In this document: positions 1 through 29,714 of the stretch, piece after piece
How positions within the stretch are numbered: position 1 is the stretch's first letter
How the letters are laid out: the number at the start of each line of letters is the position of its first letter
From: a virus
Reading direction: 5' to 3' (one strand)
Virus record (IMG/VR): IMGVR_UViG_3300000929_000001
DNA: 38,747 nt
The notes under the pieces: model-generated
Databases searched by the model: none
Told to the model about the DNA's origin: nothing
Seen by the model: the letters and a program-made list of their open reading frames with translations, nothing else
Made by a program: the position numbers and the translations under genes

Positions 1-695
1 CCGATCAAGCGATGGCCAAGCGTTGGATTCGCCCGCAGCAATACGACTGCGCGAAACTCGTTGACGAGTTTGATGAGCAACTCCTCGGTGAGGTTGTCCT
101 TCCGACATCCCCGATCATCCAATCGCATGCTCAAGCTTACGCTCGCACCTGCGACACGATCATCATCGGCGCTCTCGGCGGCACTGCCTACACAGGCACG
201 ACCGGCACAACGGCCACCGTATTGCCAGCAGGCCAGAAGGTCGCTGTCAACTATGTGGAATCCGGCACTGCTGCCAACAGCGGTCTCACCATTGCCAAGC
301 TCCGCGCTGCGAAGTTCCTCTTCGACAGCAACGAAATTGACGAGGAAGAGGAGCGCATCATGGTTGTGTCCGCCAAGCAACTCCAAGACCTGCTCCGCAC
401 GGTCGAGGCGACATCGGCAGACTACAACAGCGTTCGCGCCTTGGTGGACGGGGCTTTGAATACCTTCATGGGATTCAAATTCCGCCGCAGCCAACTCCTC
501 ACAAAAGTCTCCACCGTTCGTTCCTGCTACGCCTACGTCAAGTCGGGCGTGATCTTGGCCGAGCGTGGACTGAAGACTCACATGGACGTCCGCACGGACC
601 TCTCGCACTCCCTTCAAATCCGCTCCGTGGCCAGCCTCGCCGCTGTCCGCATGGAAGAGAAGAAGGTCGTCGAGATCGCTTGCGACGAAGCTTAA
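1..695 (+). CDS. Major capsid protein, 3' part (gene wraps the contig junction; 5' part is 38514..38747)
   Basis: The frame of ORF 12..695 is open back to nt 1. nt 1..23 are identical to 38725..38747, which joins it in frame to the ATG at 38514 (about 301 aa in total). It lies after the scaffold gene and before the adaptor genes, as in T7-like modules. A strong terminator follows. Confidence 0.8.
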   Translation, partial: DQAMAKRWIRPQQYDCAKLVDEFDEQLLGEVVLPTSPIIQSHAQAYARTCDTIIIGALGGTAYTGTTGTTATVLPAGQKVAVNYVESGTAANSGLTIAKLRAAKFLFDSNEIDEEEERIMVVSAKQLQDLLRTVEATSADYNSVRALVDGALNTFMGFKFRRSQLLTKVSTVRSCYAYVKSGVILAERGLKTHMDVRTDLSHSLQIRSVASLAAVRMEEKKVVEIACDEA

Positions 696-765: not shown

Positions 766-1776
766 ATGACGGACGTTCAAATCTGCAACTTGGCCCTCGC
801 TCGACTAGGTGATTCCCGTATCACCACGCTCGCCGATGCGACCGCACAGGCGCAGTATTGCACGCTCTTCTACGTTCAGACCGTAGCCGAACTCCAAGCC
901 GAGTTCGATTGGCAGTTCTGCCGCAAGCAGTACAACCTCATTACCGCCACGACCCCGCTCGGTGGTTACACCTACCAGTACGCTCTACCCAGCGACTACA
1001 TCCGCTCACTTCGTGTCGCCAACATCGACGAGAGCGAGAACTTCGGCCAATGGGAAATCCTTGGCACTAATCTCCAAACCAATTTCGCCTCTCCCGTCAC
1101 GTTGGATTACATCGCCAACATCACGGACGCCAGCAAGTACCCGGCGATCTTCACTGAGCTACTTGCCGTCAAGCTCGCAGGCGTCCTTGCCATGCCACTC
1201 ACTGGCAGTAAAGACCTCTTCAAGCAGACCGTGGAACTCTACATGGCCATGCTCGGCAAGCCTGCTTTCGCCAATGCCACGGAGAAGACGCAAGCGGCAC
1301 GCATCACCGCAGGCACACTGACCGCGACTGAGATTTGCAGACAAGCGATCCTGCGTGTCGGCAGCGCCAATCTCTTTGAACCCTTCGGCGAACCGATGGC
1401 ACTTGCTCAGTCGTTCTACGAGGTCACCCGCGACGAACTCCTCGCCGATTTCCAGTGGTCGTTCACCCGCTCCCAAATCTCCATTACCAAGGATGCCGCT
1501 AATCCCACGACCGGCTACGCCTACCGCTACGCCATCCCCGCAGGGACGGGGCAGATCATCCGGGTCAATAACATCGACGATGCCGACAACACCGCAAAGT
1601 GGGAAGTCGTCGGTGGCTACATCCACACCGATCTAGTGACCCCAATCGTCGTGGACATCACAACCAAGGTCACCGACCCCTCCAAGTTCCCACCCATCTT
1701 CACGCACATCCTCACCGTCACTCTCGCTATCAAGCTCAATAGCATAGTTCAACCGCATAGCGCACCTACCCAATGA
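766..1776 (+). CDS. Head-tail adaptor / tail tubular protein A (T7 gp11-like), two tandem domains
   Basis: 336 aa containing two ~168-aa units. Each starts with I-C-x-x-A-(L/I)-x-R-(L/V)-G (ICNLALARLGDS, ICRQAILRVGSA), followed by (F/W)xW(Q/S)F, then LRV-N-ID..ENFG.WE. This recalls the gp11 N-terminus (INDILASIGEPP). It sits directly after the capsid gene. Confidence 0.65.
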   Translation: MTDVQICNLALARLGDSRITTLADATAQAQYCTLFYVQTVAELQAEFDWQFCRKQYNLITATTPLGGYTYQYALPSDYIRSLRVANIDESENFGQWEILGTNLQTNFASPVTLDYIANITDASKYPAIFTELLAVKLAGVLAMPLTGSKDLFKQTVELYMAMLGKPAFANATEKTQAARITAGTLTATEICRQAILRVGSANLFEPFGEPMALAQSFYEVTRDELLADFQWSFTRSQISITKDAANPTTGYAYRYAIPAGTGQIIRVNNIDDADNTAKWEVVGGYIHTDLVTPIVVDITTKVTDPSKFPPIFTHILTVTLAIKLNSIVQPHSAPTQ

Positions 1777-3419
1777 AATCCGAAGAACTCTTCAAAGAAC
1801 TGCAATTCCTCATGTCCAAGCCTGCCCTCCTTGAGGCAGTCGAGGCAGTCGCCAACTACTCTGGCACTCTCACCACGACCGCAGCGGAAATCATCCGGCA
1901 AGCGGTCATGCGGGTCGGCAGCGCCGACACGTTCAAGCAGCAAGGCCAACCCTTTGTATTTGCGGCCAAATTCTATGGGCAGACGGTCAACGAAATCCTT
2001 TCCGACTACGATTGGCGTTTCGCCCGCATGCAGGCATCGGGCATCACTTCAACCCCTCTTTCATTCGGGTACGATTTCAAATACGCAAGCCCAACTGGGG
2101 CCATCAAGGTTCTGCGCGTCAATGGCATTGATTCCACGGAGAACTTCGGCACATGGGAAGAGGTCGGGGGATTTATCCATACGAATATTGTTTCCCCGAT
2201 TTCGGTGGATTACATCGCCCTTCCTGCCGACACCACCTTCCCGGCGATCTTCATCGAAATGGTCGTTGTGCGTCTCGCCTACAAGCTCTCCATGGCACTT
2301 GGTGCAGGCGAGCAAGCGATGGCGGCAATGAAGGAGATGGAAAGTCTAGTTGCTCGTCCAGCACTGCAACGGGAAATCACTTCTGTCGCAGACGCCTCCT
2401 CATCGAACACCATTGTGAACCGCTCGCAGATTTGCAAGCAGGCCATCATGCGCCTTGGGTCCATCGATACTTTGAAGGGCCAACCGATGGTCTTTGCGAA
2501 TTCTTTCTACGATCACACTCTGGAAGAACTCCTCTCCGATGCGCCTTGGGCCTTCGCGAAAAAACAAGTCACTCTCCTCGTTGGGACCGCACCAACACAA
2601 GGGTACACGAAGAAATACACGCTACCGACCGATGTGATTCAAGTCCTGCGAGTCAACAACATCGACACCACGGAAAACTTTGGACAATGGGAAATCATGG
2701 GGGGATTCCTCCACACGGATATCGGCGCTCCGATCATCATCGACTACACCGCTCATATCACTGACGTGGCTGAATTTCCCGCGCCATTTATCGAGGCGCT
2801 CATCGCTCGCATCGCATCAAAGATTGCTCTGCCGCTGACTGGCAGTGGCGATCTCGTCGCCGCCATGACAACCGTGGCAATGGAGACCATGCAACGCCCC
2901 AGCGTGAAAATTCTGATCGAGAAATCCGCGAAACCCCGCTTGACCACCTCGGCTAACTCGGTCTCGGAAATCTGCCGCCAAGCCATCCTCCGGGTGGGAA
3001 GTGCCGATGTCTTCAAGCCGTATGGCGAGCCGATGTCCATCGCGACATCGCTCTTCGACCAGACTCGCAACGAACTCCTCGCCGACTTCGATTGGCAGTT
3101 TGCACGCTCGCAAACAACCTTGGCAGCAGACGCTGCGCCTCCGGCCTTCGGTTACGCCAAACGATATGCCCTTCCTGTCTCAACTCTCAAGGTGCTTCGC
3201 GTCAATGGCGTCGATGAGGACGAGAACTTTGGCCAATGGGAAATCGTTTCCGGTTTCATCCACACCAACTTCACTCCGACCATCCAACTGGAATCCACCG
3301 CCATCGTTTCCGATGCGACCAAGTTCCCGCCGGTATTCACGAACATGCTCACGGTCACCCTCGCGATGAAGCTTTCCCAACTCATGGAATCTCAACCCAC
3401 CGCAGCGCCTCGCCAATAA
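1773..3419 (+). CDS. Head-tail adaptor (gp11-like), three tandem domains
   Basis: 548 aa. ATGA overlap with the upstream ORF. Three units start at IIRQAVMRVGSAD, ICKQAIMRLGSID and ICRQAILRVGSAD, each with the W.FA and LRVN.ID..ENFG.WE motifs. Confidence 0.65.
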   Translation: MKSEELFKELQFLMSKPALLEAVEAVANYSGTLTTTAAEIIRQAVMRVGSADTFKQQGQPFVFAAKFYGQTVNEILSDYDWRFARMQASGITSTPLSFGYDFKYASPTGAIKVLRVNGIDSTENFGTWEEVGGFIHTNIVSPISVDYIALPADTTFPAIFIEMVVVRLAYKLSMALGAGEQAMAAMKEMESLVARPALQREITSVADASSSNTIVNRSQICKQAIMRLGSIDTLKGQPMVFANSFYDHTLEELLSDAPWAFAKKQVTLLVGTAPTQGYTKKYTLPTDVIQVLRVNNIDTTENFGQWEIMGGFLHTDIGAPIIIDYTAHITDVAEFPAPFIEALIARIASKIALPLTGSGDLVAAMTTVAMETMQRPSVKILIEKSAKPRLTTSANSVSEICRQAILRVGSADVFKPYGEPMSIATSLFDQTRNELLADFDWQFARSQTTLAADAAPPAFGYAKRYALPVSTLKVLRVNGVDEDENFGQWEIVSGFIHTNFTPTIQLESTAIVSDATKFPPVFTNMLTVTLAMKLSQLMESQPTAAPRQ

Positions 3420-4895
3420 ATGAAGTCCGAGGAGTTATTCAAGGAACTCCAGTTCCTCGCGGGCAAGACCTCGCTCAAGAGCGCAGTCGAGACCCGTGCC
3501 TCCTCGCGTCCATCGTCTATCCTCACCGAAGACGAACTCTGTCGGCAAGCCATCCTACGGGTCGGAACTGCCGAGCAGTTCGGCCCCTCCTCGCAGGCGA
3601 TGCTCCTCGCGAAATCGCTCTACCCACAGGTGCGCGATGCCATGCTCCTCGCCGGATCGTGGACGTGGGCCATGAAGAGCGGGACCGTCATCGAGACCCT
3701 GCCTCGCCCAGAGTACAAGTGGAGTTATCGCTACCCGATCCCGTCCGACTGCCTGCGCGTCTTCCGGGTCAATGACTACGATTATTCCACCGGCGATTCC
3801 TCATGGGAGGTCGCAGGCAACTTTGTTCTGAGCAACGCCGATTCCGGCACGCCCGCTTGGGTCGTAGACCGATCCTACGAGGTCGGCAATGCCGTTTCCA
3901 ATAACGGAGTCGTCTACCGATGCCTCGTTGCAGGCACGACCAAACAACCCGGCGTCACCACGGGATGGACAACCGACTGGGATGTCTGGTTAGGCAAGGC
4001 GATCACGCTGGAATACGTCAAGAAGGTCACCGATGTCACCCTCTTCGATTCCCTCTTCATTGACCTGCTCACGGCCAATCTCGCCTCAAAGCTTGCCATT
4101 CCGCTCACTGGCGATGCCAACAAGGCGCTCCTCCTTGCCAAGGACAGCGATTCCCTTGCCAAAAGCCCAGCCATCCGCCGGGACTCGACCGAACGCAAGG
4201 GCCGAATCAAGCCCGCTTGGATGAGCAGCAAGCTCGTCTCCTCCCGCAATGGCGGCGATGGCATCGATGCCTCGCAGTCTTCGGGTGGTGGTCCTGCTGG
4301 TGGCGTCAGCTACCCCGCTCTTCATGTGACTCTCGGCAGTGTCCGCACCGTGACCGGCGCAGAACTTCCCTTTGTGACAAACACGGGTGCAAACGACACC
4401 GCTGTCTTCAACTTCGGTCTCCCGCAGGCAGGCGTCATCGACTCGGCCAAAAACACCTTGTACGGCAACGGGGTCGCCAAGACATTCGCAATCACCGGCC
4501 TCAAGTCCAGCGACCCGAACCACGTCATCGTCTCCATCAACGGGGTCGTACAAGAACCGACCATCGACTACCTCGTCAATCACGGCGCCGGCACGATCAC
4601 GTTTTCCACGGCTATACCTAACCTAGCCAAGGTCGTCGTCGTCGTTCTCGGTCTCTATTCCGCCTCGCAGCGTGTTCCCGACCTGTACGTCCACGCCTTC
4701 GCTACCAATACCGCAGGCACATTCAATTTCTACGGCATGCTGCTCAACTCCGATGTCCCTGCCACCGGATCGCCCGCCGCAGTCGCCAAGTGGACGATCA
4801 CCCGCACGGCAGTGTCGTCCGCAGGATCGATCACCTCCAGCGCCACCGCAACCAACGTGGCTTGGAATAACCGGGAGACATCGACCTACGCATGA
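3420..4895 (+). CDS. Adaptor-domain / fibre-like fusion protein (one gp11-like domain with a CBM5/12-like insert, plus a C-terminal fibre-like region)
   Basis: The ATG immediately follows, in frame, the TAA of the previous ORF. The N-terminal leader MKSEELFKELQFL is identical to that of ORF 1773. Adaptor unit LCRQAILRVGTAE..LRVFRVNDYD. Insert AWVVDRSYEVGNAVSNNGVVYRCL...W. C-terminal pattern YGNGVAKTFAITG...VSINGVVQEPTIDYLVNHGAGTITFS is typical of podovirus fibre N-domains. Confidence 0.6.
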   Translation: MKSEELFKELQFLAGKTSLKSAVETRASSRPSSILTEDELCRQAILRVGTAEQFGPSSQAMLLAKSLYPQVRDAMLLAGSWTWAMKSGTVIETLPRPEYKWSYRYPIPSDCLRVFRVNDYDYSTGDSSWEVAGNFVLSNADSGTPAWVVDRSYEVGNAVSNNGVVYRCLVAGTTKQPGVTTGWTTDWDVWLGKAITLEYVKKVTDVTLFDSLFIDLLTANLASKLAIPLTGDANKALLLAKDSDSLAKSPAIRRDSTERKGRIKPAWMSSKLVSSRNGGDGIDASQSSGGGPAGGVSYPALHVTLGSVRTVTGAELPFVTNTGANDTAVFNFGLPQAGVIDSAKNTLYGNGVAKTFAITGLKSSDPNHVIVSINGVVQEPTIDYLVNHGAGTITFSTAIPNLAKVVVVVLGLYSASQRVPDLYVHAFATNTAGTFNFYGMLLNSDVPATGSPAAVAKWTITRTAVSSAGSITSSATATNVAWNNRETSTYA

Positions 4896-5122
4896 CAACC
4901 ATCACCGATGCCAACCTAGCGCAGACACTCGATCTCAGCAATATTGACCTCATCCTGCCCGAAATCGCGCAGTCCATCGTCGAATATCCGACCCGTGCCG
5001 ACTTCCCAGAGATCGGTCGCTCGGCCCGACTCTACATCGACCTCGCCGAAGGGCAGACCTACCGCTGGCAGGAAACCACCTACGTCCTCCTCAATGCCCT
5101 CATCGACTGCGGTGACTTCTAA
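4892..5122 (+). CDS. Small tail-associated hypothetical protein
   Basis: 76 aa, ATGA overlap, high GC3. The motif YPTRADFPEIGRSARLYIDLAEGQTYRW is of a type often seen in fibre-associated proteins. Confidence 0.5.
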   Translation: MTTITDANLAQTLDLSNIDLILPEIAQSIVEYPTRADFPEIGRSARLYIDLAEGQTYRWQETTYVLLNALIDCGDF

Positions 5123-5173: not shown

Positions 5174-6112
5174 ATGGCGAACCCAATCATCAAAATCAAA
5201 CGGGGCAGTGGTCAGCCCTCATCGTTGCAACTCTCTGAGTTGGCTTATGATACACTAAACAAGTCACTTTTCATCGGAACGGCAGAAGGCGTTCTCGCGA
5301 TTGGTGGCGAAAACGTCTTTGCGAAAAAGACTTACGCAGATTCCGCGGTCAGCGCCGAAGCCTCGCTTCGCTCCGCAGCGGACTCGACACTCACCTCCAA
5401 TTTAAATGCAGAAATTTCGCGTGCAACTGCCGCTGAAGGAGTAGTTTCTGCAAATTTGGCAACTGAAATTACCGATAGAACCTCGGCAGTGTCCTCCGTG
5501 ACATCCTCGCTGAATTCGGAAATCACCCGCGCCCAAGCTGCTGAATCCACTCTCACCTCGGCAGTGAGCGCAGAGGTATCGCGTGCGTCCGCCGCTGAGG
5601 TGGCACTCGGAACCCGCATCGATAACGTGTTGAGCAATGTTGACGGCGCAGCCCTCGACAGCTTGACGGAAGTCGTTAGCGCCTTCCAAGCCGCCGATGG
5701 CACTATCAACGGAGCCATCACTAGCCTCGCCGCCAGCGCAGCCAGCAACCTCACAACAGAGGTCAACCGCGCCACTGCCGCCGAAGCGAGCATCATTGCT
5801 TCCGCGACGACCCTCGCCGGTAGAGTGACGACCGCAGAGAGCGACATCAATACCCTCGAAACCGACCTCGCCGCAGAGGTAAGCGCCCGCACAAGTGCTG
5901 TATCTTCAGAGGCTTCCGCAAGGACTTCTGCCGATTCCGCGCTCGGAGTTCGCATCGACAACGTAGTGACCGCTGCAACGGCCCTTACCTCAAGGGTTAC
6001 CGCCGCAGAGGCAGACATCCTCTCAGAGGCTTCCACCCGTGCATCGGCAGTTTCTGCCGTATCGGCTCGCGTGAGCGCCCTTGAATCGACCATCGACGGA
6101 GGCACTTACTAG
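5174..6112 (+). CDS. Tail fibre protein (coiled-coil shaft)
   Basis: 312 aa. The N-terminus IKIKRGSGQPSSLQLSELAYDTLNKSLFIG is a common fibre N-terminal motif. It is followed by long A/S/T-rich heptad-like repeats (ISRATAAE, ITRAQAAE, VSRASAAE, VNRATAAE). Confidence 0.7.
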   Translation: MANPIIKIKRGSGQPSSLQLSELAYDTLNKSLFIGTAEGVLAIGGENVFAKKTYADSAVSAEASLRSAADSTLTSNLNAEISRATAAEGVVSANLATEITDRTSAVSSVTSSLNSEITRAQAAESTLTSAVSAEVSRASAAEVALGTRIDNVLSNVDGAALDSLTEVVSAFQAADGTINGAITSLAASAASNLTTEVNRATAAEASIIASATTLAGRVTTAESDINTLETDLAAEVSARTSAVSSEASARTSADSALGVRIDNVVTAATALTSRVTAAEADILSEASTRASAVSAVSARVSALESTIDGGTY

Positions 6113-6163: not shown

Positions 6164-6532
6164 ATGGCAACAATCATACCCAAAAAATCCACGGTAGCAG
6201 GCAAAGTCCCGACGACTAGCGATTTAGGTCTCGGAGAGATTTGCCTTAATCACGCTGACCACATCCTCTATTCCCGCCATCCGGGGACGGGAGCGGTCTA
6301 CGCCATCGGAGGAGGCAGCGCAGCGGTCGAACGCTTCTGGGCCTTCGCTCTTAGCGGCAATACCGTCTACCTCGCCAGCATTTCCACATCCGACTTTCCT
6401 TCCAGCGGCAGCGTCTATGACGTGGCCCTCTGGGACATAACCAAAACAACAACCAATGACAATGGAGACGTAGTCTCCGAAAGCTCCGCAATCGGAGCTT
6501 GGAATAACAAACAAAACCTCACTTACGCATAA
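6164..6532 (+). CDS. Short fibre-like protein
   Basis: 122 aa. The N-terminus KKSTVAGKVPTTSDLGLGEICLNHADHILYSR parallels the N-terminus of ORF 5174. The C-terminus ...AIGAWNNKQNLTYA parallels the C-terminus of ORF 3420 (...NVAWNNRETSTYA). Confidence 0.6.
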   Translation: MATIIPKKSTVAGKVPTTSDLGLGEICLNHADHILYSRHPGTGAVYAIGGGSAAVERFWAFALSGNTVYLASISTSDFPSSGSVYDVALWDITKTTTNDNGDVVSESSAIGAWNNKQNLTYA

Positions 6533-15318: not shown

Positions 15319-18300
15319 ATGATCGAAATCAACGACGACGAGACAGCTTCACGCATCTACACCGAAATCGACAATGCTACAGGAGATGAGCGGATGCAGA
15401 TGGCAGATGCTCTTGGAAAATACGGAGAGAAAAAACTACAAGAGGAATACAACACCAATGATGAGCATTACTCAAAAATGTTCATGGATGATGCCTACAA
15501 CCAAGAATACAAAGGCCGATCCACGGCCATCAAAGAGGCAGTCAATCCAGATGAGACGTGGCAGCGCGGGACGATTCAAGGCTACCTTTCCCACCGACTA
15601 GGACGAGATGTCACCGCTGACAATTACGAGATCGAGAGAGATGCATTTTCGATGTCCGCTTTCGGTCAGAAGAATATCAACGATGGTCAACTTTTTGATA
15701 ATATCAAAGGCGACTACGAGTGGCAGCAAAAGAAGACTGAGGCACTCAACGACCTCCACATGCAGTCGGTCGGCAAGGCGATCAATGATTCCCAGCTAGG
15801 TCAGAATCGCCCCTTCGTGGACGGCATGACCGATGTCTTCAATACATGGCAGCAAAAGTATCCAGAGCTTGTGGACGGAACGAATGATGCCGCCTTCCTC
15901 TCGCAGGGATACAAGCTCTACTACGACACGATCAATGACCTGGACTCCGTGCGCCCGCAGGCCGCGCAGACGCTCACCACGCTGGAGAAGTTCACCAAAG
16001 GCGAGTCCGATCCAGAGGCGCTGCAAACCCTCTCCAATACGCTCATCGGAGCATCTCCCGAAGAACGTCAGAAAATCTACAAGTATGTGACCCTTGCCGC
16101 AGAGGCAGGCCAAATCGACCTCGCCGGGCTAGATCAATTTGCCCTCAACATGGGGCAAGCCTTCACCCGTGGGTTTGATTTCGTCCCGCAGGGTTCGCTC
16201 CAGATGCAGGAGGCTGGCGTCAACAACTGGTTGGAGTCCATTCGCAACGGAACGCAAATCTGGGTTCCAGTCGATGGCGACCTTTCCAAAGCAGAAGTCG
16301 GCAATGCTCCCGCAGGGGTCGAATCCGATGCATGGCGGCAGGCTACCGTCCCGGAGGCCGAGACCCTCATCCAGAGCGGTCAGAATGTGCGTGAGGGATT
16401 CAAGGTCGTGCGTGAACTCCGCAATGTGGCCAAGACCGGCGTCGATCCGATACGCCCCGTGCTGGAGGAGAATTCCTTCTGGGGAACCGCCGAGCGTGGC
16501 GCATACGGATTGGCAGGCAGCATCGCTCCCATGGCGGCGACTGCCGTGAATCCGTTCCTCGGCGCTCTCGCCTACCAAGCAACCGAGTACGACCGCATCA
16601 TGCTGGAGAACTCGGACATCAACCCGCAGTTCGCCCAAGGTCTCGCGCTAGTCGAGGGTGTCGCAAATGCCGCCATCGACCGGGTGCAGTTGAAAAGCCT
16701 TTCTGGCAAGCTTCCCATGTTTGGCCGATACCTCGACCGGATCAAAAGCGATGGCATCCGCCGCACCGTCAAGATCGGAGCTAATGTCGTGGAGCAGAAC
16801 TTGCAGGAGGGCGCTCAAGACCTCATCGCCCCCGTGCTGGAGACCGCCGTTGCCGCCCTCCGCGAGGACATGCCCGACAAGGATTTCTCCTCCCTCATGG
16901 AAGGTTGGGCAGGCCAGCGGGCCGAGACCTTCTTCGCCACCCTCCCGCTCGCACTCATCGGTGGCGGTGTCGCCTCCTTCCGCGATATCAAGCACCCGTC
17001 TGCCGAACTCAACGCGACCAAGCTTCGCATGGCGGGATTCAGCCCAGAGCAAACCACCTTCATCCAGCGAGCCGAGAACCCGGAAGAGTACGATGCTCGC
17101 ATCCAGATGGAGTTTCCGAACCGCACTCCAGAGAACATTCAAGCTGGCGAGGAACTCATCCAGCAATCGATTTCGGAGGCACAAACCCCGCCAGAGAATA
17201 GCGCCAAGCTGGAAGAGACCGTGGCCAAGGACGGCACTCGCATGTGGACCGTCACCACGCCGGACGGCAAGGAACTCCTCCAGACCAAAGACCAGCAGGC
17301 CGCACTCGTAGCTATCCGCGAGCATAACGGGGCGCAGATTCTCAATAAGCAGTTCGAGACGCAATACGAACCAGAAGAACTCCGGCAGATGATCACTGAC
17401 CTGTCCACCCAATGGACATCGGAGAAACCCGGCAATACGCTCGCCATGGAATCCGAAGGCATGAACGCCCAGCAAGAGCTTGAGCAACTCCAAGCCGCAG
17501 GCAACGCATCGCAGATTCAAGAACTCCACAACCGGATCGCGAATTCCCCGATGAAGGACACGCCTTACGAGCAGATCAACATCCTCGGCAAAGCCAGCGT
17601 GGACGATGTCGCGGAGATGGTTTTCGGGTCACTCATCACGATTAACCCCAACACCCGCCCGGAGAACCTCCGCGAGGAAATCCACCACATCGGCGTCAAG
17701 GTTGCGATCAAGAATGGCAGCGTCACACTCGACACCTTGCGCGGGTGGCTCGACGCGACCGAAAAAGCCCTGCCGGGAACCTTTCAGAACCTTGTCCGAG
17801 ATTCGGAAGGTGACATCGTCGAATCGCTTTCCCAAGTCCAAGCTGCTTACGAGAACGGCAAAATCAACGCCGACGAGGAAACCAAGCTCCCGCCTTCGTT
17901 CATTGGTTACATCAAAAACATGATGCGAACTTTCGCCGAGGTCATGCGCCGAGCAGTCGCCCTGCGCGGAGCATTTAAGGACGGCGCTCTGCCTGCGGAA
18001 TACGAATCCTTCCTCGCCGACTCGGTCGGCCTCAACCAGCAGGCACGGGTCGATACCGCAAGCCAGCGTGTCGCCGGGGATGTTTTGGCTGATACCGATG
18101 GCAAGGTGGTTTTCTCCCGCGCCCAAGCTCAGACCAACGCAGGCGAAATCCGCGCCAGCAACGCCACGATCACCGGCCCCGCGAACTACAGCATTGCCGC
18201 ACACCACGGCACGCCGCACAAGGTGGACAAGTTCAGCACCGCAAAGATCGGCACAGGCGAAGGAGCGCAGGCTTATGGCTGGGGGCTTTATTTTGCTGAA

Positions 18301-27562: not shown

Positions 27563-27799
27563 ATGAAACTAGCAACATGCAACTGCGCCGAAGTGAAAGA
27601 TGAAAACGGCAACAAATTGCCAGAAGTAGTCGGTCACAATTGTGACTACATCCGCGAAAGAAACAAACACCTCACTGAGGCTTCCAGCTTCGCTCAAATC
27701 GAACTCGATAAGACGGCACTGGAGACGCCAACCGAGAGGTCAGCATTCTTCAATAAAACATTCTCGGCAAAAATGACCGAGCTTTGTGCAGGCATCTAA
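27563..27799 (+). CDS. Hypothetical early protein (78 aa)
   Basis: Internal ATG of track ORF 27458..27799, preceded by an A/C-rich leader that is repeated before the next gene. Confidence 0.45.
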   Translation: MKLATCNCAEVKDENGNKLPEVVGHNCDYIRERNKHLTEASSFAQIELDKTALETPTERSAFFNKTFSAKMTELCAGI

Positions 27800-27870
27800 T
27801 GAAAACGACCCCGAAGGACGGCAATCCAACGGGGTCAAGTCAAAACCACAAGAAAAGCAGTAATAACAAA

Positions 27871-28692
27871 ATGAGTAATACACAACTGACACAACAAGTC
27901 AACACACAAGTCGCACTTGGCGACATGCAGGTGATGGCCAACGCCATCGTGAAATCGGGTCTCTTCGGAATGAAGACAGCGGACCAAGCATTGGCGCTGA
28001 TGATCGTGGCGACTGCCGAGGGGCGTCATCCGGGATCGGTGGCCTCTGATTATCATATCATTCAAGGCAGAGCGAGCCTCAAGTCCGACTCGATGCTGGC
28101 GCGTTTCCAGCAATCGGGCGGGCGTGTCGAGTGGCACGACCACACAAACGAGAAAGTCTCCGCGACCTTCAGCCACCCTGCGGGCGGATCGCTCCGCATC
28201 GACTGGGACATGGCACGGGCCAAGGCGGCTGGGCTGGGCGGTAAGGACAACTGGCGCTCGTATCCACGGCAGATGCTGCGGGCGCGGGTGATCTCGGAGG
28301 GGGTCCGTGCGACATTCCCTGCGGTACTCAACGGGATGTATACGCCGGAGGAGGTTGGCGAGTTTGATGCGCCTAGAACAGCGCCACGCTCGGTGAAGGC
28401 CGAGCCGGTGGTGGTAGAGCAGGTCATCGAAGCGCCGGTGGTAGTCGAGCCTGTTGCAGTTCCTGCGACACCTGTCATTGAGGCCGATGTGGTATCAATT
28501 GATACCTCATGGGCAGACGAGTTGGAGAAGCGCATTTTTGAGCATGAGCCGAAGGTGAATGCGTTTCTGCTGGCCAAGGGTCAGATCGCCGAGGGGCAGA
28601 CCTTCCGCGACATCGCGGATGAGGGCTACCGCAACCGGGTGCTGTCGAACACGCCACGTTTCCTCGATGCCGTTTTGAAGGAGGTCGCATAA
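27871..28692 (+). CDS. recT: RecT/Red-beta-family single-strand annealing protein
   Basis: ADQALALMIVATAEGRHPGSVASDYHIIQGR and NWRSYPRQMLRARVISEGVRATFP parallel Red-beta DAQFIALLIVANQYGLNP...IY and WQSHPKRMLRHKAMIQCARLAFG. The start is set at 27871 because 27800-27870 repeats the leader of the preceding gene. Confidence 0.6.
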   Translation: MSNTQLTQQVNTQVALGDMQVMANAIVKSGLFGMKTADQALALMIVATAEGRHPGSVASDYHIIQGRASLKSDSMLARFQQSGGRVEWHDHTNEKVSATFSHPAGGSLRIDWDMARAKAAGLGGKDNWRSYPRQMLRARVISEGVRATFPAVLNGMYTPEEVGEFDAPRTAPRSVKAEPVVVEQVIEAPVVVEPVAVPATPVIEADVVSIDTSWADELEKRIFEHEPKVNAFLLAKGQIAEGQTFRDIADEGYRNRVLSNTPRFLDAVLKEVA

Positions 28693-29714
28693 TGAGCGCG
28701 ACGATTCGACACTCCGCTCTGGACAAGCTCGATCTCTGTCCTTGCTTTGAAAGTAACCCCGTCTCTGGCCCTGCGGCAGAGCGTGGGACTCGTATGGACT
28801 TGGCCTTCCGTGGTCTTCTCATGGGCGAGCGCCAGCCATTCTTGGCGCTATCGGATGAGGAGCAGGACTCGGTGATGTGGGCGGTACAGACGGCCAAGGA
28901 CGTTGCATGTTACCATGAGATCATCTCAGATGAGGCGCTTCTCAAGGTGGTCACACCGCACCTCTCCCATGTTGGGACTGAGGATGCGCGGGTGGAGGCG
29001 CTTTGCTTGAGCCTGGACCTAAAGTCGGGCCAGCCACGCTCGTATCATAAGCAGCAGGCGGCATACGCCCTTGGCAACATGGCTCGCACGTTCACCGACA
29101 CTTGGGAGTGCGTGTTGCTGTTTTGTGACCAGCAGGAGGTTGTCCACTACCGCTACACCTACGAGGAGGCCGAGCAATGGGTGAAGGGGATCGTGGATTC
29201 TGCGAACGATCCAAACAAGCAACCCTGCGCGAATGAGTACTGCGCGTGGTGTGTGAAGAAAGACCGATGCCAACAGGTCGTCGAGCCGGTCGTGCAGACT
29301 CTGGCGGCAGTGGAGTCGGAGGTCTCATTGGCCGAGGTACGGCAGAACGTCCTCGCCGATCCAACTCGATTGGCGAAGGTGATGAAGGCGGCATCAATCT
29401 TTGAGAAGGAGTTTCTCAAGCCACTCAAGGATGCGGCAAAGCAACTCCTGCTCGATGGCGGGTCGCTACCCGGATGGAAGCTACAGCACCAGACCGGCAG
29501 CGAGTACTTCGACCGCATCGCAATCGTGTCTGCTGCGGTTGCCGGGAAGAGCGGACTCGATGACCTTGTGACCGCGATGGGCGGTGACATGGGCGGCAAG
29601 GCGTACCGCGAGTGGCATGAGAAGATGCGCTTGCCAGTGCAGGAACAACATGCCCAACGCAAGGGCGACATCGTAAAGCTCGTTGAGGACAAGAAAGCGA
29701 GGGCGCTGAAATGA
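28692..29714 (+). CDS. PD-(D/E)xK exonuclease with Cas4-like Cys cluster
   Basis: 340 aa. N-terminal CPC, LSLDLKSGQPRSYHKQQAAYALG (D-x-K...Q..Y), and a C-terminal CANEYCAWCVKKDRC. It is adjacent to the annealase. Confidence 0.55.
   Translation: MSATIRHSALDKLDLCPCFESNPVSGPAAERGTRMDLAFRGLLMGERQPFLALSDEEQDSVMWAVQTAKDVACYHEIISDEALLKVVTPHLSHVGTEDARVEALCLSLDLKSGQPRSYHKQQAAYALGNMARTFTDTWECVLLFCDQQEVVHYRYTYEEAEQWVKGIVDSANDPNKQPCANEYCAWCVKKDRCQQVVEPVVQTLAAVESEVSLAEVRQNVLADPTRLAKVMKAASIFEKEFLKPLKDAAKQLLLDGGSLPGWKLQHQTGSEYFDRIAIVSAAVAGKSGLDDLVTAMGGDMGGKAYREWHEKMRLPVQEQHAQRKGDIVKLVEDKKARALK

Follow-up and report, generated by a model that had tools for sequence, protein, structure and literature searches.

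Tandem and split adaptor domains encoded by three coupled genes of an uncultured temperate podophage, and a possible composite neck

The IMG/VR record IMGVR_UViG_3300000929_000001 is a virus sequence of 38,747 nucleotides, and this whole stretch of DNA, hereafter the window, represents the complete genome of a temperate podophage, assembled as a circle with a 23-nt terminal overlap. At positions 766-4895, three closely spaced open reading frames (ORF1, ORF2, and ORF3) encode six tandem copies of the domain that forms the head-to-tail adaptor of T7-like phages. We designate these units A to F in their order along the DNA: A and B lie in ORF1, C, D, and E in ORF2, and F in ORF3. The counterpart of the canonical nozzle-binding loop is found only in A, the canonical tail end only in F, and no unit has both, so the six domains are not equivalent positions of one ring. 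We tentatively favor the interpretation that the three genes encode one composite, polar head-to-tail adaptor, of which twelve chains would be arranged as stacked rings, with the number of domains setting the length of the neck. The coordinates of all features are given in Table 1.

The six units are recovered by several independent searches. The motif [ILV][CI][RKN][QL]A[ILV][LMA]R[VL]G occurs at exactly six sites, at amino acids (aa) 6 and 190 of ORF1, aa 40, 220, and 400 of ORF2, and aa 40 of ORF3. The alignment of the six units has 14 invariant columns, with a pairwise identity of 28-53% in the core, and the closest pairs are B-E (53%) and C-D (51%). A hidden Markov model (HMM) of the cores, built from the units themselves, finds six domains and no others in the six-frame ORFs of the window, each at E ≤ 7e-61 and far beyond chance. 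A second HMM, built independently from 36 single-domain adaptors (191 positions), recovers the same six domains at 90-175 bits each, and a six-frame ORF scan of the complete genome with the two adaptor HMMs detected no adaptor homolog beyond them. The PHROG family phrog_394, annotated as “tail protein” (190 positions), also matches ORF3 in one stretch (E = 9e-28), next to two and three stretches in the other two ORFs. The motif, phrog_394, and the two HMMs thus confirm the six homologous units and the 2+3+1 arrangement that a first-pass annotation of the same DNA had described from its letters. Unit A is the most similar to single-domain adaptors, scoring 174.6 bits against the single-domain HMM with an alignment to positions 3-179 of 191, whereas the other units score 90-134 bits. 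Unit F scores 132 bits and is aligned through position 190 of 191, so that its alignment takes in the terminal motif ERKGRIKPAWMSSKLVSSR.

The identification of the units as adaptors similar to T7 gp11, also made in the first-pass annotation, holds in profile and structure comparisons as well. In the PDB, the profile of the six units matches the “connector protein” of Carin-1 (8ck1_E, E = 3e-16) and the adaptor of LME-1 (9efk, 12 chains, E = 9e-11). The score for the Pfam family PF24175 (SU10_adaptor) is 13.7 bits against a cut-off of 27, which does not support membership in that particular family. The AlphaFold2 (AF2) model of ORF2 has a predicted local distance difference test score (pLDDT) of 77 and a predicted template modeling score (pTM) of 0.44. 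It contains three repeats of two N-terminal helices, six strands, and two C-terminal helices, with the last helix missing from E, and the fold is a four-helix up-down bundle in which a β-sandwich “fiber dock” is inserted between helices α2 and α3. The top 30 Foldseek matches of this model are all podophage adaptors, including LME-1 9efk (template modeling score, TM, 0.72), Carin-1 8ck1_E (0.64), and T7 gp11 (6r21_M and 7box_N, about 0.55). The best matches are all dodecameric adaptors, and further ones are those of Kp9, the KP32 tail tubular protein A (TTPA), PhiM1, P-SCSP1u, A4, and SU10. The AF2 model of ORF3 was unusable (mean pLDDT 42.8).

A canonical adaptor has an up-down bundle made of α1-α2 and α3-α4, in which the channel is lined by α4, the C-terminal end of which is in contact with the portal clip, a β “fiber dock” between α2 and α3, and a C-terminal tail or helix that climbs the portal (PMC6702177; Xacm4-11 preprint). 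In T7, the acidic α1-α2 loop of gp11 binds the platform of the nozzle (PMC6702177). Among relatives of the phage, 391 domains were typed from 84 loci. An HMM of the α1-α2 loop of single-domain adaptors gives 36-48 bits for all 84 A domains, but at most 4.5 bits for all 307 others, F included. The non-A domains have in common a derived α1-α2 loop, G[ST]A[DE]xFxPxGxP. The opposite distribution is seen at the other end of the domain. The motif W..S.LV..R occurs 47 times in the scanned loci, always behind an F domain and never behind another type, and an HMM of the tail end (the last 30 residues) gives 9-15 bits for F and at most 3 bits for A and all other types. With an HMM of α4 and the proximal tail, the median scores are 6.9 bits for F, 3.3 bits for A, and about 0 for the others. 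It is also evident that the distance between successive cores is nearly constant, at 33-40 aa across 199 cis junctions of ten junction types, whereas the insertion loops and the fiber part vary widely. The middle domains are conserved among the relatives to the same degree as A.

The two gene breaks do not fall between domains. Since B and E stop after helix α3, and since the leaders of ORF2 and ORF3 are homologous to the segment from α4 to the hook, both breaks lie in the α3-α4 loop. Over 13 aa, the two leaders (MKSEELFKELQFL) do not differ at all, although 7 of the 13 codons carry synonymous changes. An HMM of the segments that come in cis after the A, C, D, and G cores (G is a further domain type of the relatives) gives 14-29 bits for the real leaders, in register, and a maximum of 6.7 bits for 720 shuffled leaders. 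At the level of sequence, the leaders are therefore true homologs of the internal inter-domain segments, as was noticed at first reading when the ORF boundaries were placed at the homologous point of the repeat. In line with the first-pass view that the duplication has been maintained, both leaders are under purifying selection. In the relatives, every gene break that was inspected comes after a B- or E-type domain lacking α4, and every classified downstream protein starts with an MK.E.LF-type or an MKEQFF-type leader. B and E are the closest paralogs, and it is their partner leaders that are identical over 13 aa.

These results suggest a completion in trans, with the leader at the start of each downstream protein supplying what the bundle before it lacks. 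The α4 of the leader would fill the place of the missing helix (donor-helix complementation), which would join the three products 1:1:1, head to tail, as A-B~C-D-E~F-fiber. A comparable principle is known from chaperone-usher pili, where the N-terminal extension of one subunit fills the gap in the incomplete immunoglobulin (Ig) fold of the subunit before it (donor-strand complementation). In both cases, the last domain of one protein is incomplete and the following protein carries the absent element at its N-terminus, which in the pili gives, and here would give, an ordered, non-covalent head-to-tail joining. Unlike in the pili, the donated element here would be a helix of a four-helix bundle rather than a β-strand, there would be only two such joints in a mostly covalent chain, and the joining is deduced from homology.

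The three genes are also tightly connected in translation. The first-pass annotation was exact in reporting three ORFs, with an ATGA overlap between the first two and an in-frame TAA followed by the start at the very next codon between the last two. The junctions in the relatives take the forms ATGA, TAAATG, and TAANNNATG. Among the junctions between ORF1-type and ORF2-type genes (B|C and E|C), 43 are ATGA overlaps in the -1 frame, 2 are in-frame TAA junctions, 2 are tight in another way, and 6 are unclassified. Among the E|F junctions, 27 are in frame (TAA ATG or TAA NNN ATG) and 8 are ATGA overlaps in the -1 frame. Besides the classified junctions there are 25 unclassified ones, 19 of which have an MKEQFF-type leader that was missed by the search pattern. 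No Shine-Dalgarno motif, promoter-like site, or terminator-like site was found between the three genes. The nucleotide after the TAA of ORF2 is A, and there is no slippery heptamer at 1760-1790, around the overlap of ORF1 and ORF2. It had been proposed that occasional read-through of the TAA would yield a fusion protein, and a frameshift at 1773 had been named as something to look for. Neither is supported, given the variable frame relation at the E|F junctions and the lack of a slippery heptamer at 1773. The conserved feature is tight translational coupling of the termination-reinitiation type, not a fusion product, and a plausible role of such coupling is the equimolar synthesis of the three proteins.

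Metagenomes contain many members of the family, which has 175 cluster representatives for ORF2 and 177 for ORF3. The first-pass annotation had recommended a search for the 2+3+1 layout in related metagenomic phages, and this layout, AB|CDE|F, proved to be the commonest among them. Other layouts are AE|CDE|F, AE|F, ADE|F, AGE|F, AGDE|F, and AGB|CDE|F, and a single-ORF A-F fusion of about 735 aa is found in L083, P0390, and many of the ORF3 cluster representatives. The total number of domains in close relatives is thus 2, 3, 4, 5, 6, or 7. AGDE|F was found in at least four loci, and seven domains are present in L079 (AGB|CDE|F), whose layout is also seen in L059 up to the F gene, which was not reached there. 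A is always the first domain (84 loci), and each of the 56 F domains of the scanned loci is the last of its array, but the next neighbor of A can be B, E, D, G, or F. One relative with two domains, located on a 435-kb contig, may be a prophage. The ORFs are unbroken in dozens of independent contigs, derived from many samples. An assembly artifact was considered and ruled out, given that the units are only 28-53% identical and that many independent contigs and samples contain these proteins.

The relatives with two to seven domains share the same portal, capsid, nozzle, and fiber genes. In particular, the set of downstream genes is the same in relatives with 2, 4, 5, and 6 domains, which speaks against the earlier suggestion that different docks carry different fibers. 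For the same reason, the idea that each additional fiber gene requires one additional fiber dock was rejected.

Tandem adaptor domains are not limited to this clade. An exhaustive profile search returned 14,905 homologs, and about two-thirds of the 150 best-scoring cluster representatives have at least two matched stretches, in a ranking that favors arrays. The longest single chain has 16 domains (P0145, 2416 aa), followed by chains of 9, 8, and 7. Arrays of 8-16 tandem adaptor-like units occur in the metagenomic proteins P0145, P0128, P0131, P0156, P0193, P0194, and P0200. The adaptor profile is matched from its N-terminal end by a single unit of P0145, the first. The genome context of P0145 (16 domains) and P0128 (8 domains) was not found in IMG/VR or the JGI metagenomes. 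Two arrays that are independent of the clade, L086 with 5 domains in 929 aa and L150 with 6 domains in 938 aa, can be placed in their genomes. Both lie between a capsid gene (phrog_3437) and a nozzle gene (phrog_376), with the nozzle gene directly next, and are the only adaptor homolog there. Both end in a canonical tail and carry no fiber or adhesin module. Among the cultured phages of INPHARED, by comparison, no protein has more than one adaptor domain, all matches being single-domain. We also found no description of tandem, duplicated, split, or stacked adaptor domains in the literature library that was searched, in agreement with the first-pass remark that no described podovirus with this layout was known.

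The favored arrangement follows from the polarity of the chain, by analogy with T7, Xacm4-11, and LME-1. The tail of F would attach this domain to the portal, and the α1-α2 loop of A would dock that domain on the hexameric nozzle. The chain would then run, from N- to C-terminus, from distal to proximal, which matches the upward path of the canonical tail behind α4. Because no gap can be left in the DNA conduit from the F ring to the A ring, the intervening domains would form rings as well. Twelve chains would form six stacked 12-membered rings in the order portal-F-E-D-C-B-A-nozzle, and each linker behind α4 would ascend along the next higher ring in the way that the canonical tail does along the portal. 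Every chain would reach from one end of the tube to the other, held together in part covalently and in part by donor-helix joints. The number of domains would set the length of the neck tube, the exposed loops of the fiber docks would carry adhesin-like insertions, and twelve fiber modules would leave from the top ring. A neck tube of stacked rings whose length is encoded in the genome as the number of tandem domains (2-7 in the clade, up to 16 elsewhere) is a possibility that we put forward with caution. By inspection, the net charge of the α4 helices did not discriminate as a test of lumen lining.

Several points weigh against such a stack. In the AF2 model, the individual domains are confident but the packing between them is not (pTM 0.44), and the leader of ORF2 is undocked in the monomer (pLDDT < 50), with a helix predicted at aa 2-14. 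To our knowledge, ring-on-ring stacking of adaptor domains has no precedent, and it would need the upper face of A to accept B, E, D, G, or F. The polarity is lineage-specific rather than universal, since in an independent array of the P0121 type all five units have canonical loops. A canonical first end and a canonical last end are also partly expected by descent alone from internal tandem duplication, and the roles given to loop and tail are putative ones, transferred from T7-like phages that share the fold and not the sequence. Finally, the internal units of P0145 match only about positions 40-140 of the 191 in the single-domain profile, which is hard to square with lining of a channel.

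In the main rival interpretation, only one or two rings would line the channel, and the other domains would protrude sideways in twelve strings resembling petals or whiskers, forming a peripheral collar. F might lie under the portal with A under F, or A might lie there alone with the tail end of F returning to the portal. The strings would decorate the neck and carry the adhesin insertions and the fiber module, and the number of domains would alter the size of the collar and not the length of the tail. This is the simplest evolutionary path, as domains added in a surface tail need no new ring-ring interface, and any number of domains or order of neighbors would be tolerated, including the five alternative neighbors of A. 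Even phages with F proteins that are 80-95% identical differ in copy number, a rapid change that is typical of appendages. The insertions in the loops of D (about 90 aa) and F (51 aa and CBM5/12-like, or about 290 aa in L026), the absence of a fixed inter-domain packing in AF2, and the reduced internal units of P0145 also fit decoration, as does the observation that T7 gp11 is monomeric without the portal (PMC6702177). A collar, however, leaves unexplained the constant inter-domain spacing, the single derived α1-α2 loop of all non-A domains, and the conservation of the middle domains at the level of A, and the L086 and L150 arrays have no fiber or adhesin module to display. We consider it possible and somewhat less likely than the stack.

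The special position of A could also mean that A is the only adaptor ring, binding both portal and nozzle, and that B to F are a beaded, flexible stalk that keeps the fiber module at a distance from the neck. Among the units, A resembles single-domain adaptors the most (174.6 bits vs. 90-134) and retains the nozzle-type loop, the fiber-like module is at the far end of the chain, and a variable number of repeats is common in phage fibers. It would then be difficult to explain why A lacks the canonical tail end, which is kept solely after F and under strong conservation, and why α4 and the proximal tail are more canonical in F than in A. Moreover, the L086 and L150 arrays end in a canonical tail with no fiber module to hold. 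A stalk is therefore unlikely.

The first-pass annotation had proposed one pseudo-symmetric ring of 12 positions, made of two copies of each protein, with an occasional fusion by read-through of the TAA. Six divides twelve, and so do the counts per protein in the clade (1, 2, 3, and 4). In T7, the adaptors alternate between two conformations at the step from 12-fold to 6-fold symmetry (PMC6702177), and an alternating A/F ring of a 2-domain fusion would match this step. The domain counts, however, exclude the tiling of one closed 12-position ring as a general model: totals in close relatives range from 2 to 7, intact relatives have 5 (AGDE|F) and 7 (AGB|CDE|F) domains, a single 5-domain protein is the sole adaptor of L086, and chains of 7, 8, 9, and 16 exist, whereas 5, 7, 8, 9, and 16 domains cannot tile a 12-mer. 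A ring of this kind would also have a nozzle loop at only 2 of 12 positions and a tail end at only 2 of 12, and the in-frame TAA is not conserved. For the phage studied here, such a ring is very improbable, and it is more likely that the array lengthens or decorates the neck than that it tiles one 12-position ring. That only one of the three proteins is assembled, the others being decaying or non-structural duplicates, is close to being dismissed, in view of ORFs that are intact in dozens of independent contigs, leaders that are under purifying selection, conserved orthologs of each domain type, and conserved tight coupling.

The β-sandwich loop that carries the 51-aa insertion of F, where the alignment of the other units has a gap, is an insertion hot spot, and presumably it is exposed to solvent. 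The same loop holds an insertion of about 90 aa in the D domains of L002, L059, and L079, and one of about 290 aa in the F domain of L026 (4508-6589). In ORF3, the region in front of the fiber-like module varies in length among the relatives. A near-identical homolog of ORF3 in the same 90% cluster is NCBI CAB4136035.1, annotated as “ChiA1_BD domain containing protein” of an uncultured Caudovirales phage. The C-terminal motif ..AWNN[RK]..[ST]..TYA is shared by ORF3 (4850-4892) and a 122-aa ORF at 6164-6532 (6490-6529). The latter and the ORF at 5174-6112 also share a common fiber-type N-terminus (6164-6290 and 5174-5300, respectively), which matches the N-termini of several “tail fiber” PHROGs.

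The genome around the array encodes an integrase, RecT, an exonuclease, TerL, a portal of the T7 type, a PF19821 capsid protein, a nozzle homolog of phrog_376, and internal virion proteins. It is the integrase together with the RecT/exonuclease pair (25063-26094 and 27784-29714) that marks the phage as temperate, despite its T7 architecture. Bases 1-23 are identical to 38725-38747, which shows the contig to be a circular assembly, and the major capsid gene spans the junction (about 38505-38747 plus 12-695). The adaptor array follows the capsid gene, and fiber genes separate it from the nozzle gene. The nozzle homolog, with 1164 aa, is longer than the phrog_376 profile (712 positions), and the surplus lies between an N-terminal phrog_20269 part and the C-terminal 500 aa. 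The length of the nozzle protein (847-1164 aa in the relatives) shows no relation to the number of adaptor domains. Downstream of the genes for internal virion proteins is an ORF of 2828 aa (15319-23805), presumably an ejection or internal protein, whose sole match is a weak one to phrog_30335 (function unknown).

Throughout the genome, gene starts (e.g., 766, 5174, 8519, 15319, and 35238) have almost no Shine-Dalgarno-like sequence ahead of them, which suggests a host that relies little on Shine-Dalgarno sequences. Two scans of GTDB genomes, one with ORF2 and one with the ORF2 alignment, returned no relative, prophages included. We further noticed a 15-mer, GTTTYGRCTGATACC, of which 11 copies occur with 0-1 mismatch, compared with 0.8 expected for the whole 3-mismatch scan. 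Ten copies are on the plus strand (12854, 18082, 18997, 20878, 23816, 32800, 35221, 37361, 38333, and 38474) and one on the minus strand (34734). Several of them lie 17-20 nt upstream of start codons, such as those of the portal gene and of ORF 37380, four are within the large internal-protein ORFs, and none is within 766-4895. The 15-mer may be a phage promoter or regulatory site.

Table 1. Positions of the adaptor array, its parts, and selected structural genes in the 38,747-nt window.
Feature	Position	Strand	Remarks
Major capsid protein, C-terminal part	12..695	+	PF19821, E = 6e-60; gene crosses the contig ends
ORF1, 336 aa: adaptor domains A and B	766..1776	+	phrog_394, E = 8e-69 in 2 stretches; two domains with own HMM
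Unit A (aa 1-185): complete domain, α4 and proximal tail in cis; most like single-domain adaptors	766..1320	+	
Canonical α1-α2 loop of unit A, LARLGDSRITTLADATAQAQYCTLFY; counterpart of the nozzle-binding loop of T7 gp11	796..873	+	
Unit B (aa 186-336): ends after helix α3, without α4	1321..1773	+	Nearest paralog E (53%)
ATGA start/stop overlap of ORF1 and ORF2; ORF2 in the -1 frame	1773..1776	+	
ORF2, 548 aa: leader and adaptor domains C, D, and E	1773..3419	+	phrog_394, E = 2e-68 in 3 stretches
ORF2 leader (aa 1-36): homolog of helix α4, hook, and linker; proposed to complete B in trans	1773..1880	+	
Unit C (aa 37-215): complete adaptor domain	1881..2417	+	
Unit D (aa 216-395): complete adaptor domain	2418..2957	+	
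Unit E (aa 396-548): ends after helix α3, without α4	2958..3416	+	Last helix 520-540, then chain end (AF2)
TAA ATG junction of ORF2 and ORF3, same frame; TAA at 3417-3419	3417..3422	+	Frame relation not conserved in relatives
ORF3, 491 aa: leader, adaptor domain F with canonical tail, Gly-rich linker, and fiber-like C-terminal module	3420..4895	+	
ORF3 leader (aa 1-36): homolog of α4, hook, and linker; proposed to complete E in trans	3420..3527	+	
Unit F (aa 37-276): complete adaptor domain including full canonical C-terminal tail	3528..4247	+	
51-aa insertion in the β-sandwich (“fiber dock”) loop of F, CBM5/12-like	3837..3989	+	PF02839, E = 2.9e-4, under the Pfam cut-off; alignment gap in other units
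Canonical adaptor C-terminal end motif, KPAWMSSKLVSSR	4209..4247	+	
β-rich C-terminal fiber-like module	4446..4892	+	phrog_18673 and phrog_2710, “tail fiber protein”, E = 1e-4 and 5e-5
ATGA overlap of ORF3 and the next ORF (4892-5122)	4892..4895	+	
Nozzle (tail tubular B) homolog, 1164 aa	8519..12013	+	phrog_376, E = 5.5e-178
Portal protein	35238..36899	+	phrog_332, E = 1.5e-117; PF12236 seen in orthologs of relatives

The array described here shares with the T7-like adaptors (T7 gp11, Carin-1 8ck1_E, LME-1 9efk, and KP32 TTPA; PHROG 394) the fold, the topology, and the C-terminal tail, and its profile similarity to Carin-1 and LME-1 is significant. The gene slot after the capsid gene is also the same, and the portal and nozzle homologs belong to the same PHROG families. 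The known adaptors, however, are single-domain proteins of about 190-230 aa, encoded by one gene per genome and forming one homododecameric ring, whereas here six domains are on three polypeptides, two of them are split, and a fiber module is fused to the last. Likewise, the nozzle-type loop and the portal-type tail are on different domains instead of both being on each subunit. The adaptor proteins of this phage thus fail two defining features, namely one domain per chain and both partner-binding elements in every subunit.

Tandem duplication of a ring-forming domain within one chain is known from pseudo-symmetric rings, such as the bacterial β-clamp (2×3, compared with 3×2 in PCNA), T4 gp27, and the T5 tube protein pb6. 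In those rings the total number of domains per ring is fixed, whereas here it is 2-7, and up to 16 elsewhere. If the stack holds, the neck would resemble the adaptor-stopper-terminator-tube stack of siphophages and the C12 “tail barrel” of crAss001, where the DNA conduit continues ring by ring below the portal; the crAss001 tail barrel (7qoj_D) is a weak Foldseek match (probability 0.94, TM 0.36). The rings of those stacks come either from distinct proteins that belong to different families or from one tube protein in many copies, and we know of no conduit that is built from tandem adaptor domains in one chain spanning several rings. Phages also have appendages with a variable number of repeats, such as the Ig-like arrays in fibers and decoration proteins. 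The array is like them in the fast change of copy number among close relatives and in exposed loops with carbohydrate-binding-like insertions. It is unlike them in that the unit is a whole adaptor domain, the linker length is fixed, and the array is the only adaptor of the phage.

The adaptor of short-tailed phages has been seen as a constant, namely one small protein whose single dodecameric ring joins portal to nozzle. In a widespread group of uncultured phages, it has become a modular array that varies in length, and independent lineages have arrived at such arrays too, with up to 16 domains per chain. The split units also provide a natural example of a domain that is divided at a helix-helix loop and presumably rejoined in trans. 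For annotation pipelines, these arrays call for caution, as such proteins are currently called “hypothetical” or “tail protein”. If the additional domains loop out, a ring protein would have been reused to make a neck appendage of a new class. If the domains stack, they would represent a new way to build a DNA conduit and to set its length, in which the tail would be made and measured without a tube protein or a tape measure, and this would come close to a new kind of tail construction.

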